Below, piece by piece: positions 1,921 through 34,749 of a DNA stretch of 64,000 nucleotides. The DNA is from Lama glama (taxonomy: Eukaryota): NCBI GenBank assembly GCA_028534125.1, contig CM052816.1, positions 36,706,001 to 36,770,000 of the forward strand, in the 5' to 3' direction. Every line of letters begins with the position of its first letter. Within the stretch, counting starts at the first letter, position 1. Under the pieces are notes generated by a model, which was given only the letters and a program-made list of their open reading frames with translations, did not search any database and had not been told where the DNA came from. Both the position numbers and the translations under genes were made by a program.

Positions 1921-1969
1921 AGAAAGAAAAAGAAAGAAGGAAGGAAGGAAGGAAGGAAGGAAGGAAGGA

Positions 1970-2020
<51 letters not shown>

Positions 2021-2208
2021 GAAGAAAGAAAAGAAAAAAGAAAGAAAGAAAAGAAAAAAGAAAGAAAGAAAGAAGGGGAAGAAAGAAAGAAGAGGAAGAA
2101 AGAAAGATGAGGAAGAAAAGGAAGGGAAGGAAGAAAGAGAAGGAGGAAGAAAGAAAGGAGGAAGAAGGAAGGAGGAGGAAGGAAGGAAGGGAGGAAAGAG
2201 AAAAAAAA
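1921..2208. repeat. Compound (GAAG)n/(GAAA)n polypurine microsatellite
   Basis: About 290 nt, almost entirely A/G, with GGAA and GAAA tandem units; explains the low-complexity ORFs 1865..2110 and 1913..2299. Confidence 0.98.
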
Positions 2209-3334
2209 TAGGGCTAGTTTTATCTGGTTTATTATAACTATCTCCTGATTTGAGTCTCATAGTTAATATAGATGTCCAGTAAAATCTACTAGGCTTCATA
2301 TATCTATTATATTATTAACTATCCCTGCTTTATTGGCTAATTTAGAATTTCACTGAAATATCTACAAATGAGGCTATATATCTCAGTGATAATAGTTCTA
2401 AACTGCATTAGGCACCTAATCTGCTTACTATCACTTCTTGGCATAATACTAATTTTTAATAGTGACTTTAATTTCAGAAATGCTCTGCAGATTCTAAAAT
2501 TTTAAAAGCAATGGTTACCACCAGCAGAATGGCTTCTAGATAAGTGGATAATTATAATCTTTCTCAGAGCTAAGTTAATTAGCTACCGCCTTTTCCTAAG
2601 GAGAACGCTTTGTACTTTGCACATTTCTCAGTAGCTATTTATTAGACAGAAGAGCCATGACTAAGCAAGTTAGGCTATTTACGATCATTTAACTTGGTAT
2701 AATAAAACAGAACCATGCAGTGATGGACTGAATTCCTTATGTCAGAACTAGACAGAATTCTGAGACTAATAATGGAACAGAGCCTGAAAGGACACAGCAC
2801 TTAAAACCTCTACTGAGTTTACTTGATTTTACTTGTTGGAGAAAGTAATTTCACAATTTTTTCAAAGTAATATCAAGATTCAATTGCTAATAGGTAAAGA
2901 TGAAGCAACACTAACATTTTGAAGAACAAGGATGCTAATGCAAGTGAAAGTCTCTGTGGCCCTCCTATTTCCTAGGATTTCATAACCTTCACTATGGGAC
3001 TTGAGAATAGGGTTGAGAAATTTTATAGTGCTTTGCAAAGAATACTTGCAGTACCAATGTGATAAGCATTCAACAAGCACACACATCTCTTTGAAACAAT
3101 TTGGCTTAGAATTTCAGGCTAAAATAGTTCTTTTAAAAGATAATAATGGGATTGTAGAGCTACTTTATTTTAGAACAGTGTTTCTAGACTCAGATTAAGA
3201 AACAGAAAGATTCCTAAGGGCTTTTAAGAGAAGTGAAATGATTTCACTTCACACAAGGCTCGTAACAATACCCCATGAATGTGACTTCTGCATTTGTAGA
3301 GTACCTAGTGTGACTTGGCTCAATCACTTACTAT

Positions 3335-26244: not shown

Positions 26245-29200
26245 TTTCAAATTAAAAAACTTAACTTTGTACATCAAGGAAATAGAAAAAGAAGAACAGG
26301 AAGGCCCATAGTTAGCAGCAGGAAGGAAATGACAAATATCAGAGCAGAAATAAATGAAATAGTGATTAATGTAAATTAGGAATTTGGGATTAACAAATAC
26401 ATACTACTATATATAAAATGGGTAAAAAGGACCTAGTGTTTAGCACAGGGAACTATATTCAATATCTTGTAATGACCTACAGTGGAAAAGAATCTGATGT
26501 TTCTTTGCTCTTCACTTGAAACTAACACAACATTGTAAATCAACTGTACTTCAAAAAAGTTAAGGAAAGAAATAAGCAAAATTGACACATTTTAGCTAGA
26601 CTAAGAAAATAAGAAAGGACTCAGGTAAAATTGGAAATGTAAGAGGAGACATTTCAGTTTATACCACAGAAATATAAAGGATCATAAAAACTACTGTAAA
26701 CAATTACACACCAACAATTTGGATAACCTAGAAGAAATAAGCTAATTCCTGGAAACATACAACTAAGACTAAATCCTGAAGAAATAGAAAATCTGAAGAG
26801 ATCAATAATGAGTTAGGAGATTCTCAATAATCAAAAAACCTTCCAACAAACAAAAGCCTGGCACCAGATGGTGAATTCTGCAAAATATTAAAGGAAAAAT
26901 TAATGCCATTCTTCTCAAACCCTTCTAAAAAACTGAACAGGAGAGAATACTGCAGAACCTTGATACCAAGGCCAGATAAGAACACTAAAAGAAAAGGCTA
27001 ATATCCCTGAATAATGTAAATGCTAAAATTCTCAACAGAATATTAGCAAACTCAATTCTGTAGAACTTTAAAAGGATCATATACCATGATCAAGGGGTGT
27101 TTCTTCCTAGAATACAAGGATGATTCAACATGAGCAAATCTATACATGTGATATACCACATTAGTAGAATATAAGGTAAAGTTTATATGATTATTTCAAT
27201 AAGTGCAGAAAAAGTGACAAAATTCAACATCCTTTCATGATGAAAGATCTCAACATAGGGGTTATAGAATGAATGTAGCGCATATAATAAAGGCCATATA
27301 TGACAAACCCACAGCTAACATCATCCTCAAAGGTAAAAGGTTGAAATTTTTGAGACCAAAACAAAGAAACAAACCAAAAAAACCCACCACCAACAAAAAA
27401 ACAAGACAAAGGTGCCCACTATCACCAATCCTATTAAACATGTTGCTGGAAGTCCTAGCCGGAGCACTTAGACAAGAAAGAGAAATAAATAAAATCCAAA
27501 TCAGAATGGAAGTAAAATTGTCCCTGTTTGCAGGTGATATGATCTTATATTTAAAAAACACTAAGCCTGCCCTAAAACTGTTAAAGCTAGTAAATGAATT
27601 CAGTGAAGTTGTAAGATACAAAAATCAACATCAAGATATTAGTTGCATTTTTATACACTAACAAAGAAATGTCTGAAAAAGAAAACAATCCCATTTATAA
27701 TGGCATCAAAAATAATAAAATACTTAGGAATAAATTTAACCAAAGAGATGAAAGATCTGTACACTGAAAAGTACGATTTGATCAAAGAAATTAAAGAAGA
27801 CACGAAATAAATGGAAAGTTATTTGTATTTTTGGATTGGATGAATTCATATTTTTAAAATTTATATAATAGTCAAAGTAATCTATAGATTCAGTATAATA
27901 TCTGTGAAAATTTCAATGGCATTTTTCACAGAAATAGAAAAAAAATCCTAAAACTTATATAGAACCATTATAGATTCCAAATAGCCAAAGCTGTCCTGAG
28001 AATGAAGAACAAAGCTGGAGGCATCAGACTTCCTCATTTCAGATTATATTACAAAGCTATACTAATCAAAACATTTTGGTACTGACATAAAAATAGACAG
28101 AGAGACCAATGGAACAGAATCAAACACCCAGAAGTAAATCCCATATACTGTCAGGTAATATTTGACAGATGATCCAAACATATTGAATAGGGCAATAATA
28201 GTGTCTTCAATAAATGATGTTAGGAAAACTGGACAATCATATGCAGAAGAATGAAATTGGACCCCTACTATATACCATTCACAAAAATTAACTTGAAATT
28301 GATTAAAGACTTGCACATAAGGCTCCAAACTGCAAAACACTTGGAAGATTACCAAGGGAAAAACTCCTTGGCATTGGTCTTAGCAGCAATTCTTTTGGAT
28401 ATGACACCAAAAGCATTAGCACCAGAGGAAAAAAAATAATTTGTGAGACTGAATTAAACTAAAAAATTTGGCAAAGCAAAAGAAACAACAAAATGAAAAG
28501 GCAACCTATAGAATGAAAGAAAACATTAGCAAACCATCTATCTGACAAGGGGTTAATATCCAAAATATGTAAGTCACTCTTGCAGCTCAGTAGGAAACAA
28601 ACAAACAAGCTATCTGATTAGAAAATGAGCTGACTGTACATTTTTCCAAAGAAGGCACATCAATAGCCAGCAGGTACATGAAAAGATGTTTAATATCACT
28701 AGTTATCATAACCATGGTGAGATACCACTTCACATTGGTTAAAACAGCTATTTTCAGAAAGGCGGGGTATCAAAAATTATGGCTAGGATGTGAAGAAAAT
28801 GTAACCCTTCAGCACTGTTGGTGGAATTGTAAATTGATGCAGCCAATTTGGAAAACAGTATGGAGGTTCTTCAAAAGATTAAGAATAGAACTACTGTATG
28901 ATCCAGCCATCCCATTTCTGGGTATATATGCAAGAGGAATGAAATCAGGGTCTTGAAGAGCGATCTGAACTTCCATATTTATTGTAGCATCATTCACAAT
29001 AGCCAAGATATGGAAATAACCTAAGTGTACATTGACAGGTGAATGGATACAGATGCGTTTACACAGGAATATTGTTAAGCTGTAAGGAAGAAGGAAGTCC
29101 TGCCACTTGTGATGACATGGATAGACCTTGGAGGCATTTTGCTAAAAAAATAAGTCAGACAGAGAAGGACAAATACTTTATGATCTCACTTGTATGTGGA

Positions 29201-29598: not shown

Positions 29599-30512
29599 GA
29601 ATATATTGTGCATATCTTAACTTGGTGCTTCATAAACATAGTTTCACGTGCACATTGTAGAGGATATTTGTAAAAGTAAGTATATTCTGTAAACATTATC
29701 ATGATATTAATATGTCTTTGTATTTTCCTTCAGAGTTCTCACAGTTATTTTTGCTTTGTTGCTCTTTCTCCCATATTCTCTATCTCTGTTGAATTTTGTT
29801 AATTGCATAGGCATTCTGTTTTGTGACGCAGTGTCCCCTATAGCCCTCTTATTAAAGCAAATGTAGTTTTTCTGTCTTTCGATATCCATATCAATATTTT
29901 TCAAATTTAAATGAAAATACTTTTTACCCTAGGAACACATCTATTTAGACACTCTATTTCTAATTATACACAAATGATTGGACATTTCTGTCAACATTGT
30001 AAAAGCTCAGGCTGTATTTTAATCAATAAATTAGTATTTTTACATCCATTTTCCAGAACTGCTTATGTGGTCTTTCGTATATATATATATATAAATATGC
30101 ATGTGGAAATGTTAAGATGCGTAAACACGTGGCAAACTGGGTCAGGGTTATTCATCATATGCATTTACAAAAATCAGTTTTCTTTTCATCTACAATTCTC
30201 TTAAAATTAACCTTGTTATGGTCCCAAATTTCTTAACATAAATTAAAATAAACCTCTAAATATAATAGCAGAGCAACTCTCAAAATCTAAATAATTACTT
30301 AAAAATGACTTGTATCAGTGTCTAGCTGAATATTTGTATTCCAAGAACTTAAAATTATGCCATTTAAATACTATATCACATAAAAGATACTGAAGTGATC
30401 CTAAGGAAATAATCATACTCATTTCTCAGTATCATTTTTAAAAGAACTACTGTTTTCCTATTTTAATCCAGGGATTTTTCAGTTTTTAATCCAAATAAAA
30501 AAATACCTTTTA

Positions 30513-30670
30513 TGATGGAGAAAGCAAAAGCTTCACAGATAAACAAAAGCTAAAAGATTTCAGCAACACCAAACCAGCTTTACAACAAATGTTAAAGGAC
30601 CTTCTCTAGTCATCAAGCCATGAGAAAAGAGACCAAAAAAAAGAAAGAGAAAAAAAAGAGACCTACAAAA
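30513..30670 (+). mobile_element. L1 ORF1 C-terminus and inter-ORF spacer
   Basis: Translates as DGESKSFTDKQKLKDFSNTKPALQQMLKDLL*, the ORF1p C-terminus. Confidence 0.9.
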
Positions 30671-30950
30671 GATTGCTTTGGCTATTTGGGGTATTTCGTG
30701 GTTCCTTATAAATTTTGGAATTGTTTGTTCTAGTTCTGTGAGGAACGGCCCGAGTGTTTTGATGGAGGTTGCGTTGGATGTGTGGATTGCTTTGGGTAGT
30801 GTGGCCATTTTGATGTTGTTAATACTTCCAATCCAAGAGTGCAAGAAATCTTTCCATTTCTTTGTGTCATTTTGGTTTTCAGAGTATAGGTAACCTCCTT
30901 GGTTAAGTTTATTTCTAGGTATTTTGTTATTTTTGATGTAATGGAAATGT
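30671..30950 (-). mobile_element. L1 ORF2 fragment (post-RT), antisense
   Basis: SWIGSINNIKMATLPKAIHTSNATSIKTLGPFLTELEQTIPKFIRNHEIPQIAKAI in ORF 30560..31012. Confidence 0.9.
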
Positions 30951-31004
30951 TTCTGCCAGTTATAAAATTCTGGTTTTTGAAGTGGAAAAAAAAAGTGAAT
31001 AAAG

Positions 31005-31055
31005 GGCTGCAAATGGCAAAATATCCTTTTTTATGGGGGAGTTGTTTTCCATTAT

Positions 31056-31088
<33 letters not shown>

Positions 31089-31225
31089 AAATTCCATAAT
31101 ATATATATGCTGTATCTCCATTATCTATTCGACTATTGATGTGCATTTAGGATGCTTCCATATTCTGGCAATTATAAATAATGTTGCTGTCAATAGCAGA
31201 GTGTGTGTATATTTTTCAGTTAATT
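31005..31225 (-). mobile_element. L1 3' fragment containing a (CA)n/(TA)n microsatellite
   Basis: 'gctgcaaatggcaaaat', 'tttaggatgcttccatattctggcaattataaataatg'. Confidence 0.8.
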
Positions 31226-31351
31226 CATATTTTGCAGTGGGCTTTATTCCTTTGATAACTATGTTAAGTTTAAAAAGCTAAAGCTCTAAACATCCTTAGA
31301 AACAATGAATAGTATGTATATGTAAATTTAAAAATATATATGCAGTTAAAA

Positions 31352-31875
31352 AAAAAAGATCTATCAAACCATGAAAGACATAGAAGAAACTTAAAAGATA
31401 CATTACTAAGTGAAAGAAGCCAGTCTGAAAAGGCTACAAACTGTATGATTCCAACCAAATGACATTCTGGAAAAGGCACAGCTACAGAAACAATAAAAAG
31501 ATTGTGGTTTCCAGGCGTTTGGGGAGAGGAAGGGAGGGAAGAATGAATAGATGGAGCACAAGGGATTTTTAGGGCAATGCAATTATTCTGTATGATAATA
31601 TAGTGGTGGCTATATGCTATTATGCATTTGTCAAAGCCCATAGAGTGTACAACAAGTGTGAACCCTAATGTAAACTATGGACTTTGGTTGATAATAATGT
31701 GCCCATGTTGTTTCATTGATTGTACCAAATACGCCATACTGATGAGGGATGTTGACGGTAGGGGAGTATATATGTGTGGGTAGGGAGGGCTATGTGCGAA
31801 CTCTCTGTATTTTCTGCTCAATTCTGTTGCAAACCTGAAACTGCTCTAAAAGAATAAAATCTATTAAAAAAAAAA
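31352..31875 (+). mobile_element. L1MC1/2-like 3' end with AATAAA and A-tail
   Basis: 'ctaagtgaaagaagccagtctgaaaaggctaca', 'ccctaatgtaaactatggactttgg', 'aaacctgaaactgctctaaaagaataaaatctattaaaaaa'. Confidence 0.88.
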
Positions 31876-34749
31876 GTACCTTTTAAAGACAACTGAAAAG
31901 CAAATTAGAAATTCTACTACTCAATTAGTACAAAAATACCAAGAACACCTAAATGAATTTATTTATTTCCTGATTTTGTTTAAAACTAAAACAAAAACTT
32001 ATCTTATAAAGGGGTGGCAAATTTTGCTTAATAAATATTCAGTTAGTGAAGAAATATAATTATTTCTTATATTCTAGATGTAAACTTTCTAGTAGTCTAG
32101 ATCTAAACATTCTAATCATTTCCTATTTTTCTAAGGTAGTCCAAAAGCTGAATATTTTAATTTTGATGAAAGCATTTCTACAGACTTCATTCTTCATGCA
32201 CAGTCATTCTGCTATTGTCCTGCAGTTATGTAAAATCAAAAAGACATAGTTTGTATGGCAAGTGAAATTCTGGTAGGATAACCAGCATATTTTAGAGCTT
32301 ATGCAAGATACTAATATATTTGAACACTGTCTCTAGCCATTATTTAAAATAGACCTAGAGGAAAAATTTGCCAGTATCGTAAGACTTGGGAATTTGAATA
32401 TCAAAAAATGTATTTGAATCAACAATTTAATTGAAGATAAATCTTGATCTACTCTCTTCCCCAAAATAATGTGAGATGGGAGTGTAGGTTAAGAACTTAT
32501 ATTGAGTGCTAACGAAAGAATCCATTTTTGTTCTAAAAGTGTCATGACATAATTCTGAGATGCAGTTTACTTTTATCAGTTTCTCTTGAAAGAAGCCATG
32601 ATCTTGCCTGAATAGAAAGCCAAACCAAACAAAAACAAAAACATAATCATCTAAAAACATAGATCGTATCAAATAAATAAGTTTTAGACAAATTGTAATT
32701 TGGGGGACAGACTGTCAGGCAACTAATTTCAACTTATACTTTTGACCAAACAAAACAATTATATAGGATACAAAAGTGCCAACAGCATTTTAATTACTTT
32801 TCCAAAGTTAGAGAATTCCATACTGTTTATGAATTCAGACTATTACTGATCTTAATTGTCTCCTTTAACTAATCTGATTATCTTGAGTATGCTTTGTTAA
32901 AAAAAATCCTGATATTAATGTTCAAAATACTGGAGAAAAATAAAATTTACCCTTAATATAATTTTAGTTCTCTTACTTGTATTTACTTACATGATATAAT
33001 TTAATTAGTAAAGAAATGTTTGGTCAACAGGGGCAGGTACTAAATATGTCTAATATAACTTTTAGTGCATTTGGGTAAGAAGATGAGGATTTATATAGCA
33101 AAGGAGGTCCCAGAAGTATCTGTTGTTTAATGTGACTGAAATTCACTCATATAAAGTATTATCACATTTCTGAGTCATTTCAAGACAATATTGATAGAGA
33201 CTTATCCCATTTTCCTCTTCTTGTTTTTCTTAGATCTTAATCAGACAGTATCTCAATCCAAAGTAGATATATGATGCCTATACAAATAGGATCTTCTTTT
33301 CCTTTTCACCATTGCATTATTTCCCTGTGATATGTAATGTATAGTGTTGAGATTGATGTAGTTAATAAGTTACAGAAGACAGTAAGATACCAACTTCTAT
33401 AAATGCTAGATGTGAAATGGAAATTCATACAATTGGAATCAAAGGAGGATCCTTCATGTCAGCTTTTGTTTGTCAACTAAGAAAGCTATATCCACATATG
33501 GCAATGAGTATCCCTATTAGCTCTAAGTCTTAAAAAAGGAATATAAAATATCATAGTATTTCAAAAACTATCTTCATCTGGTATTTTTTTCACTGAATTA
33601 ATTCTTATGTCTGTGCCAGATTTTGCTAACACTAAGAATTTAGCATTTACATAGGTTATACTTAAAAGTCTATTTATCAATGTGCCTATTGGAATGTATC
33701 ACTTTGGGGAAAATTTAGATATTACTTGTAAAATTATTTGTATGGCACAAAGTATCATTGGATAATTAAATCCACCTATTTTAATATTCTTGACACATTA
33801 AACAAATGCTAGCTTACTTAAGAGTATATTAAATTTTTGAATTGGTCTCATGAACTAGGGAATGTCTAAATAAAATGATATTCGGCATGCATATCTGATC
33901 TAAAGAATAACTACATGTATCAGACATTTTTTTAAAATGATTTGAAATTGGCTCAGTGAGATAATCAGTCAGTTGCCAAAGCATTGAATTAATATTCCCA
34001 AATACAAGCAGTGCATCAGACTGAATCAACATTTGTTACAAGAAGTTCGTTCAAAATCATAATTCTAGCAGAAAAAAAGATATTTTTAAAGAACCAATAG
34101 TAATTCTTGGTTCATTTTGTCTCTCTGAAGGATAGCAATGGAAAATAACTAGAACATTGGATGATGTTAGCTCAGGAGGTTCATTTGATCTAATTGATAA
34201 CTCAATATGATATTTATAAAGCTCCTACCAAAGGGTATGGCTTACTGTAGGCCTTCAATTAGAAATAGCTCCTTTACCTTCTAAGTTAAGAAGACAAAGT
34301 AGAAAAGAACCACATCAGCTGCAATTGTAAATTATAGATTCCTTTTCTACTGTTTTATAATGAGTTTATGTGGACAACAATAACTCTGTATCTGTTTCCA
34401 TATTTTCATTAACTATTTGATATGCTTTAAAAAATGAAGTTTTGTGAAACAGCCAAATCTGCTTTGATTTGGTTGATAGTTTCTTTTGACTGAGACTGCA
34501 TTAGATATCTAGATGAATTTAGGGAAGAAGTAATGTCTTAGTAAGGGTATGTCTCTCATCCATGATTATGGTATATCTGTTATAATCACATGATTAAAAT
34601 TATTTGTTTCTAATTCTAAAGATAAGCTTTACTACTTGAGTTCAATTTTTGGTGAATTTTTACAAGTTGCAGTGTATGTTCAGGACTCAGTTCATTTCTT
34701 TAAGACAGAGATATACATTAGTTACAGTTATTGATTTTTTAAATTAATA

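Follow-up and report, generated by a model that had tools for sequence, protein, structure and literature searches.

A mosaic L1-derived insert, probably a dead half-L1 copy, with a candidate RNA-editing fossil

Introduction

How did L1 pieces of both orientations come to be joined between a single pair of near-identical 16-mers? In the window (i.e., the whole 64-kb stretch of DNA that was analyzed), such a mosaic occupies 1.36 kb. The original prediction was that it had arrived in one event, as a retrocopy of a chimeric RNA, and that it might belong to a composite non-autonomous family. Here, we ask whether its pieces, boundaries, and relatives agree with that history, and what the substitutions in one of its pieces suggest about the RNA that was copied.

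Results

Composition of the Mosaic

Comparisons with Pfam, human ORF1p and ORF2p, and L1 DNA confirm the predicted order of L1 pieces, i.e., ORF1 end (+), ORF2 fragment (-), spacer, L1 piece (-), and L1 3' end (+) (Table 1).

Table 1. Features of the insert and its flanks, in window coordinates.
Feature	Position	Strand	Sequence or evidence
Left target-site duplication (TSD)	30497..30512	+	AAAAAAATACCTTTTA
L1 ORF1 end, the final 31 codons with the stop; insert 5'-truncated here	30513..30609	+	PF17490, human ORF1p
Purine-rich start of the L1 inter-ORF spacer	30610..30670	+	Aligns to L001 past its ORF1 stop, up to 30659
Antisense ORF2 scrap 1	30671..30950	-	Human ORF2p about 745-860; DNA matches to about 30950
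A>G cluster, candidate ADAR editing fossil	30742..30818	+	Substitution counts vs. L1 copies
Spacer without assignment, also in P0003	30951..31005	.	
Antisense ORF2 scrap 2, C-terminal coding end	31006..31225	-	Human ORF2p 1190-1217, L1 DNA matches
AT-rich stretch	31226..31295	.	No match among L1 DNA comparisons
Old mammal-wide L1 3' end, presumably L1MC-like	31296..31869	+	AATAAA 31853-31858, A-run 31866-31875
Right TSD	31870..31885	+	AAAAAAGTACCTTTTA

The first piece matches PF17490 with 30.5 bits (cut-off 22.2) and human ORF1p with an E-value of 3e-5; compared with a single distant L1 copy, L001, the ORF1 part gives 69%. Nothing of ORF1 is present beyond its last 31 codons and stop. Since the stop and the spacer that follows it are kept while the piece starts inside ORF1, the arrangement is as expected of a 5'-truncated half-L1. 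In L001, the L1 ORF1 sequence expected before this piece is partly similar to the left 16-mer (10/14, with a 4-nt gap).

Scrap 1 matches human ORF2p 793-860 over positions 30671-30874 (E 1e-13); this range was compared directly, and residue 745 as the end of the scrap is an estimate from length. The scrap has a 24-nt deletion near 30870. Scrap 2 had been predicted to be an antisense L1 3' piece; it is antisense L1, but actually the C-terminal coding end of ORF2, as judged from DNA matches to other L1 copies and a weak match to human ORF2p 1190-1217 (E 0.14). A (CA)n(TA)n repeat interrupts it at about 31057-31088.

The gap before the old repeat is about 70 nt rather than the predicted ~120 nt, as the homologues of the repeat begin near 31295. 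Positions 31294-31834 constitute a repeat common to 13 proteins of other records at 43-58% amino acid identity. An old shared repeat on the + strand is thus present as predicted; what the comparisons establish is the repeat, which we take to be L1MC-like. Of ORF2, the insert has nothing but the antisense scraps and, in this old tail, a degraded C-terminal remnant, leaving no capacity to code for ORF2p. Neither Rfam nor ARAGORN gave a match in the window, four of the five pieces searched had no relevant match in Pfam, and three PDB searches with short pieces returned no match.

Target-Site Duplication and Tail

The reading of the flanking 16-mers as a TSD is upheld. At most one mismatch being allowed, the 16-mer has only two matches in the 64-kb window (0.01 expected), and none of 100 window shuffles had two. 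Among 21 pairs of piece boundaries, the outer pair has the top score of 14, the maximum for 150 random pairs being 9. Scores of 9 and 11 were obtained for two further boundary pairs, in each case an A-run matching the tail; such matches aside, no TSD surrounds any inner piece. At the left TSD, the cut falls at AT/AAAA, a variant form of the TT/AAAA that PMC13174262 gives as the motif of the L1 endonuclease. The mark of an L1 retro-insertion is a TSD of 7-20 nt at an A-rich endonuclease site; here, the duplication is identical at 15/16 positions (18/20 for the extended pair) and unique in 64 kb.

Of the predicted 3' end, AATAAA and an A-run are both present, but the tail is weak. The A-run begins 7 nt past AATAAA and has 10 A in total, six of which lie inside the right TSD. 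It lies just where the old repeat would naturally end and may be no more than that end.

This last observation would suit a stepwise build-up on the site, starting from the old L1MC-like end, with later insertions and deletions and a chance pair of A-rich repeats. The partial ORF1-likeness of the left 16-mer points the same way, no empty site was observed, and an inner insertion might explain the 11-nt A-run match at 30986-30996. Nevertheless, we regard such a build-up as very unlikely, given the 0.01 chance matches expected for the TSD, the lack of any other inner TSD, the nature of the scraps (tailless fragments from inside ORF2), and the strand-specific A>G patch described below, which points to passage through RNA.

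A Second Copy and the Origin of the Insert

The mosaic recurs in P0003, a protein encoded by a 1,027-nt record, which is 81% identical over the same junctions and has the same 24-nt deletion. It agrees with window positions 30659-30994 at 91 of 112 residues and with 30975-31052 at 81%, crossing three junctions. None of 284 other retrieved proteins has two 5-residue words from its spacer or inter-ORF parts. Since the junctions are the same, the mosaic was assembled before the window copy and P0003 diverged. Their DNA divergence is about 9%, and a value of 5% or less is rejected (p<0.01). Seven derived residues are found only in the window and two only in P0003, and two differ in both.

The recurring junctions also bear on twin priming of an ordinary L1, the inversion from which would place sense and antisense L1 pieces inside one TSD, as seen here. 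However, the scraps run from residue 860 to about 745 and then to the C-terminal end, the reverse of what one inverted segment would give, and the tail comes from a repeat that is much older. This origin, the least probable of those considered, was rejected, as it requires one contiguous inverted segment attached to the sense 3' end of its own L1.

P0003, known as a protein only and without flanks, is the sole second copy found. Ordinary L1 pieces were the only result among the best 120 of 1,274 matches in one protein search and the best 150 of 6,840 in another, and also among 13 of 42 protein candidates, none of which exceeded 58%. Motif scans gave 0 matches in viral contigs and 0 in metagenomes, and a related-locus search of viral contigs with P0001 or A2 gave no match. 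The protein searches returned neither a copy reaching further into ORF1 nor a protein at least 90% identical to the frames of the window; the latter result indicates that the host is thinly sampled. No source locus emerged from the searches.

The insert itself is apparently present in all 14 best DNA runs, which come from seven studies and carry four organism labels. The share of the words of the locus found in the four organisms is 0.72-0.78, implying a divergence of at most ~1%; shares of at least 0.72 are above the 0.63 that length predicts for a locus lacking the insert. The divergence of P0003 is far above this level. RNA runs contain 0.08-0.26 of the words, and as the two largest shares are about what the large contig totals of these runs would give, they provide no evidence of expression.

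These data allow two readings of P0003. The insert might be a one-off retrocopy of a chimeric RNA produced by read-through, as a lncRNA, or by template switching, with no family behind it; P0003 would then be a single source locus or an orthologue in a more distant relative, and the latter it could indeed be. The TSD and tail agree with this, as do the single second copy in all searches, an insertion old enough to be present in all of the best DNA runs, and the documentation of L1 chimeras formed by template switch or ligation in the accessible text of PMC13174262. On the other hand, the 9% divergence comes with lopsided decay, and a match to one particular locus is improbable in a thinly sampled host; meeting one copy there would be likelier if many existed. 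We therefore consider a one-off origin rather unlikely. The original prediction of a chimeric RNA is supported, but its lncRNA, 3' UTR, or transduction variants are less likely than a composite non-autonomous family, whose junctions recur in P0003, albeit in just one second copy.

Arrival of the whole 1.36 kb in a single insertion of a ready-made chimeric RNA is supported by the unique outer TSD, the absence of inner TSDs other than A-run matches, the recurrence of the junctions in a second copy, and the RNA-type A>G changes on the poly(A) strand. The insert probably derives from a non-autonomous L1 of the half-L1 (HAL1) kind, as a 5'-truncated and now dead copy whose scrap 1 had been ADAR-edited in an earlier round. 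The master element, presumably present in many copies, would have had an L1 promoter and a full ORF1 head, followed by the two antisense ORF2 scraps in place of ORF2, and the old L1 3' end would have given it a poly(A) signal. Its RNA would have used the ORF2p of a full L1, which would have nicked AT/AAAA; copying would have begun at the A-tail and ended 31 codons before the end of ORF1, generating the 16-nt duplication. In an earlier round, antisense scrap 1 may have paired with sense L1 RNA, ADAR changing roughly every second adenosine over 80 nt to inosine, which reverse transcription would have fixed as G.

A Strand-Specific A>G Cluster in Scrap 1

In scrap 1, 12 of 24 A within 30740-30820, boundaries picked after the data had been seen, are G, compared with 0 of 19 A outside. 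All 12 A>G changes fall within 76 nt (permutation p 2.5e-4), the control copies having at most 6 per 80 nt. They lie on the poly(A) strand, i.e., the + strand of the window and the transcribed sense of the element, and affect silent sites as well as conserved residues (Y, F, I). A>G was counted at 11/40 vs. T>C at 3/77 (Fisher p 4e-4), the pooled figure for 14 control L1 copies being 45/530. These controls comprised 13 loci and one copy in the window; loci L011 and L013, two of the 16, were left out, as was L014, which had no usable match, and 17 of the 190 columns were uncalled. Against the three closest L1 copies only, A>G stands at 10/32 and other transitions at 6.8% (p 3e-5, or 8e-4 after 24-fold correction). 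The cluster is dense, strand-specific, and of A>G type on the RNA sense. Scrap 2 has no A>G excess (0/10 and 4/27).

At the protein level, 4 of 269 proteins were left out for covering under 55 of the 70 columns, as were 15 of the 70 columns (2 end columns and 13 with under 60% agreement). The excess of the window on its own is borderline (6/19, p 0.053). In P0003, 8 of 14 changes are of A>G type (p 3e-4), several of them common to the window, and so are 6 of the 10 derived residues shared by the two. None of the ordinary L1 pieces (n=265) has more than 5 A>G-type changes.

The patch fits putative ADAR editing of the RNA of the element, with reverse transcription fixing the result. According to the available text of PMC4365171, ADAR-edited sites in repeat RNA are low after G and high before G. 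At the few sites that can be judged, changed A has a 5' T in 5/6, a 5' G in 1/4, and a 3' G in 2/2 cases; high 5' T, low 5' G, and the presence of 3' G agree with ADAR, the counts being tiny. No sense partner for the patch is found within the insert. As any sense L1 RNA complements scrap 1, the two may have paired in trans, or the partner may have been a part since lost.

It is conceivable, if not our preferred view, that the insertion took place as proposed and the patch has another cause, such as a cluster of errors from error-prone DNA synthesis, a strand bias linked to transcription, or a parent L1 that had diverged. The A>G numbers are small, and the L1 copies used as references are from other mammals and not from the parent subfamily of the host. 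Polymerase eta-like synthesis prefers a TA context, which the TA preference seen here also fits. Editing by ADAR1 of transfected sense L1 RNA was not seen in the accessible part of PMC5224506; in the same source, however, truncated L1 pieces that form double strands do carry edits. Against such causes is the change of half of the A in 80 nt, and of none outside, on the transcribed sense, and a divergent working parent L1 is ruled out by the changes at conserved Y, F, and I. GC-biased conversion predicts an equal rise of T>C and was rejected on account of the strand asymmetry; APOBEC and CpG decay were rejected as the wrong substitution type.

Discussion

The closest known counterparts of the insert are HAL1 elements, non-autonomous L1 derivatives deposited in Repbase (e.g., HAL1_Ssc of pig and HAL1-3_ML of bat) that, in the accessible portions of the HAL1 literature, have several independent origins in mammals (PMC5753468, PMC5786205, PMC13756887, PMC6501411, PMC6726744). 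Like them, the insert has an ORF1 end, lacks a usable ORF2, and carries a TSD and a putative poly(A) end; hence it depends on a full L1. Unlike the insert, which shows the ORF1 end only, full-length HAL1 copies have full ORF1, and the 3' part of antisense ORF2 scraps and an old L1 end sets the insert apart. Its family may or may not be one of those in Repbase; HAL1 is absent from the main text of a camelid TE survey (PMC8605555). Chimeric L1 insertions formed by template switch, ligation, or twin priming likewise unite, at an L1 endonuclease site, pieces of mixed origin that share a single TSD; but, as far as the available text describes them (PMC13174262), the partner RNA is 5' of the L1 3' end, whereas the insert has its L1 head 5' of the older debris, and a second record shows the same mosaic.

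Inherited APOBEC G>A clusters are well documented for LTR elements in the sections available of PMC4866542 and PMC2873906. They share with the insert a cluster of a single substitution type gained in retrotransposition and inherited; the insert differs in having A>G on the RNA sense strand of a non-LTR element, as would result from ADAR acting on RNA rather than APOBEC acting on cDNA. Hyper-edited repeat RNA, so far as PMC4365171 could be consulted, has similar dense A>G clusters, low after G and high before G; those are RNA-vs.-genome mismatches, whereas the A>G changes of the insert are in the genome itself. The accessible literature searched, which covered few subscription journals, contained no description of ADAR-type clusters fixed in genomic L1-derived copies.

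The truncated half-L1 copy is ordinary in itself, though possibly of an undescribed lineage-specific family; the point of importance is the edited patch. We tentatively suggest that the half-L1 family may descend from an ADAR-hyper-edited RNA. Annealing of the scrap to L1 mRNA would have exposed the RNA to ADAR and may have brought the two RNAs close enough for a template switch joining the L1 head precisely to the scrap edge; reverse transcription would have fixed the inosines in germline DNA, and all later copies would inherit them and be less complementary to L1 RNA. If this is true, the family would record past ADAR activity in the germline as a dated fossil in the genome. Should the patch prove common to the whole family, it would show that RNA editing feeds back into the DNA of the germline, and a simple screen for such events would be to look through retrocopies for antisense repeat scraps with A>G clusters on the sense strand.

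Structure of the insert

The pair of 16-mers that the original prediction placed at both ends of the ~1.36-kb L1 mosaic (the insert) is present. Within the 64 kb, a search for them with at most one mismatch yields two matches, both of them copies of the target-site duplication (TSD), where 0.01 would be expected, and allowing two mismatches returns the same two only. When 21 pairs of piece boundaries were scored for repeats, the outer pair ranked first (18/20, score 14), the maximum score in 150 random pairs being 9; A-runs account for the scores of 9 and 11 at two further boundary pairs. The cleavage site is AT/AAAA. The A-run at the 3' end has only 10 nt, six of them belonging to the TSD, and the left 16-mer is partly ORF1-like (10/14 with a gap). 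We are highly confident that the insert is a real single retro-insertion.

The predicted ORF1 end and antisense ORF2 fragment (scrap 1) are recovered, and the predicted antisense L1 3' piece (scrap 2) matches the C-terminus of ORF2. The old repeat end is presumably L1MC, and the stretches between pieces that have no assigned origin measure about 55 and 70 nt, the second being shorter than the ~120 nt predicted. Twin priming is ruled out, since the scraps lie in reverse order to one inverted segment. Just past the ORF1 stop, positions 30610–30632 resemble 31361–31385 of the old repeat (both approximately TCAAGCCATGA..AAGA.AC by eye), which is possibly a trace of head joining, or chance.

The setting is AT-rich mammalian DNA (GC of the window 0.28–0.41) with many dead L1 pieces. 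Neither Rfam matches nor tRNA-like genes were found in the 64-kb window.

Features of the insert and its neighbours
Feature	Coordinates	Strand	Remarks
Tandem array	1921–2211		purine-rich (AAAG/GAAG)n, ~290 nt
Upstream sense L1	26240–29600		long, decayed; ORF2 and 3' end; ~0.9 kb upstream of insert
Break in upstream L1	near 26380–26560		apparent; presumably a short younger L1 3' end
Scrap 1 homologue in upstream L1	27704–27991		66% identity
Left TSD	30497–30512
L1 ORF1 end with stop codon	30513–30609	+
Start of L1 inter-ORF spacer	directly after ORF1 stop
Scrap 1, antisense ORF2	30671–30950	-	human ORF2p residues 793–860 for tested part
Scrap 2, antisense ORF2 C-terminus	31006–31225	-	human 1190–1217, E 0.14; DNA matches
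Old repeat end	31296–31869		common to 13/42 candidate proteins, 43–58% identity
Right TSD	31870–31885

A second copy of the mosaic

In a protein search with the ORF2 scrap, 5 of 17 candidates match, one of them, P0003, at 80%. This protein comes from a 1,027-nt NCBI record and runs in the order scrap 2, spacer, scrap 1, inter-ORF piece; it has in common with the insert an 8-residue gap in scrap 1. The two differ at 21/112 residues, corresponding to ~9% in DNA, and a divergence of 5% or less is rejected (p<0.01). Four organisms with the insert locus hold 0.72–0.78 of its words, i.e., they diverge by at most ~1%, whereas P0003 stands at ~9%, which rules it out as an orthologue in these four. A more distant relative may be where it is orthologous; for a camelid host, the split between the two tribes is put at ~16.3 million years ago (PMC6726744). 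No further copies of the mosaic occur among the matches listed in other protein searches, in motif scans of viral contigs and metagenomes, or in a word test on 284 proteins. With the host thinly sampled in collections, such a match would be likelier to come from a many-copy family than from one locus. Derived residues number 7 in the window and 2 in P0003, as if the latter were nearer the source, a difference that is not significant.

Two short contigs in bacterial assemblies (Colwellia sp., Pelagibacterium lacus; loci L015:884-1168 and L016:191-543) encode mammalian L1 ORF2 pieces, most likely by contamination. Several proteins (P0008, P0010, P0018, P0127, and P0128) each contain two matches to one ORF2 stretch, with the order rearranged, and are likely L1 assembly chimeras in metagenome contigs.

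Resemblance to half-L1 elements

The insert is half-L1-like because it starts inside ORF1 and retains the stop and spacer without a working ORF2. In its sequence layout it resembles a 5'-truncated half-L1 and would work like a copy of HAL1, the ORF1-only non-autonomous L1. The likeliest reading, held with moderate confidence, is that it descends from a HAL1-like family as a truncated copy. This way of life is already known: ORF1p is described as the sole product of HAL1 elements, which have several origins in mammals (PMC5753468; PMC5786205; PMC13756887), and a pig family, HAL1_Ssc, is deposited in Repbase (PMC6501411). The main text of one camelid survey (PMC8605555) does not mention HAL1.

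A cluster of A>G substitutions in scrap 1

Scrap 1 was compared with 13 of 16 fetched L1 DNA loci and the in-window copy in the upstream L1, substitutions being read on the + strand over 173 of 190 columns called. The window has A>G at 11/40, T>C at 3/77, G>A at 3/36, and C>T at 0/20 (Fisher p 4e-4); pooled controls have A>G at 45/530 and T>C at 68/980. By plurality call, 12 of 24 A within 30740–30820 are changed to G (one of them, 30812, depending on a weak column), and none of the 19 A outside this patch are. A permutation test of its span gives p 2.5e-4, controls showing at most 6 A>G per 80 nt. With the three closest copies as reference, A>G reaches 10/32 and other transitions 6.8% (p 3e-5; 8e-4 once corrected for four transitions and six pieces). 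Five of the ten A>G sites are third-position; the rest include conserved Y, F, and I changed to H, S, and T. Scrap 2 has no A>G excess (0/10 and 4/27).

At the protein level, A>G-class changes account for 8/14 in P0003 (p 3e-4) and 6/19 in the window (p 0.053), and for 6 of 10 derived residues common to both; none of 265 ordinary L1 pieces exceeds 5 residues of this class. Since both copies have these residues in common, most of the patch is older than their split.

The in-window copy itself shows G>A at 13/35 on the test strand, up to 10 per 80 nt. This may be CpG decay or a subfamily difference, as the copy belongs to an older subfamily than the references.

Possible origin of the patch

The + strand carries the poly(A), hence the A>G changes lie on the RNA of the element. 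Clusters of A>G are described as a mark of ADAR and those of G>A as a mark of APOBEC (PMC2873906), and at ADAR sites G is reported to be rarer 5' and commoner 3' (PMC4365171). The neighbours in the patch (5' T 5/6, 5' G 1/4, 3' G 2/2) follow the ADAR direction, at very few sites; clustered polymerase errors are a possible alternative source. Scrap 1 is the complement of sense L1 RNA. Within the insert, no double-strand partner for the patch survives, so pairing would have been either in trans or with a part since lost. Against ADAR, transfected L1 RNA is reported as unedited by ADAR1 in a study that also notes edits in truncated L1 pieces forming double strands (PMC5224506). On balance, we regard ADAR as a moderately likely cause.

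Inherited editing scars have been described for APOBEC on LTR elements (PMC4866542), and no report of ADAR-type clusters that became fixed in genomic copies derived from L1 appears in the literature covered, mostly outside subscription journals and including the available text of PMC2873906, PMC4365171, PMC4866542, PMC5974252, and PMC5224506. The insert probably carries a fossil ADAR patch. If ADAR is indeed the cause, the patch would be a separate line of evidence for passage of the antisense scrap through + strand RNA, and this would support the main proposal of the original prediction, that the insert arrived in one event as a retrocopy of a chimeric RNA.
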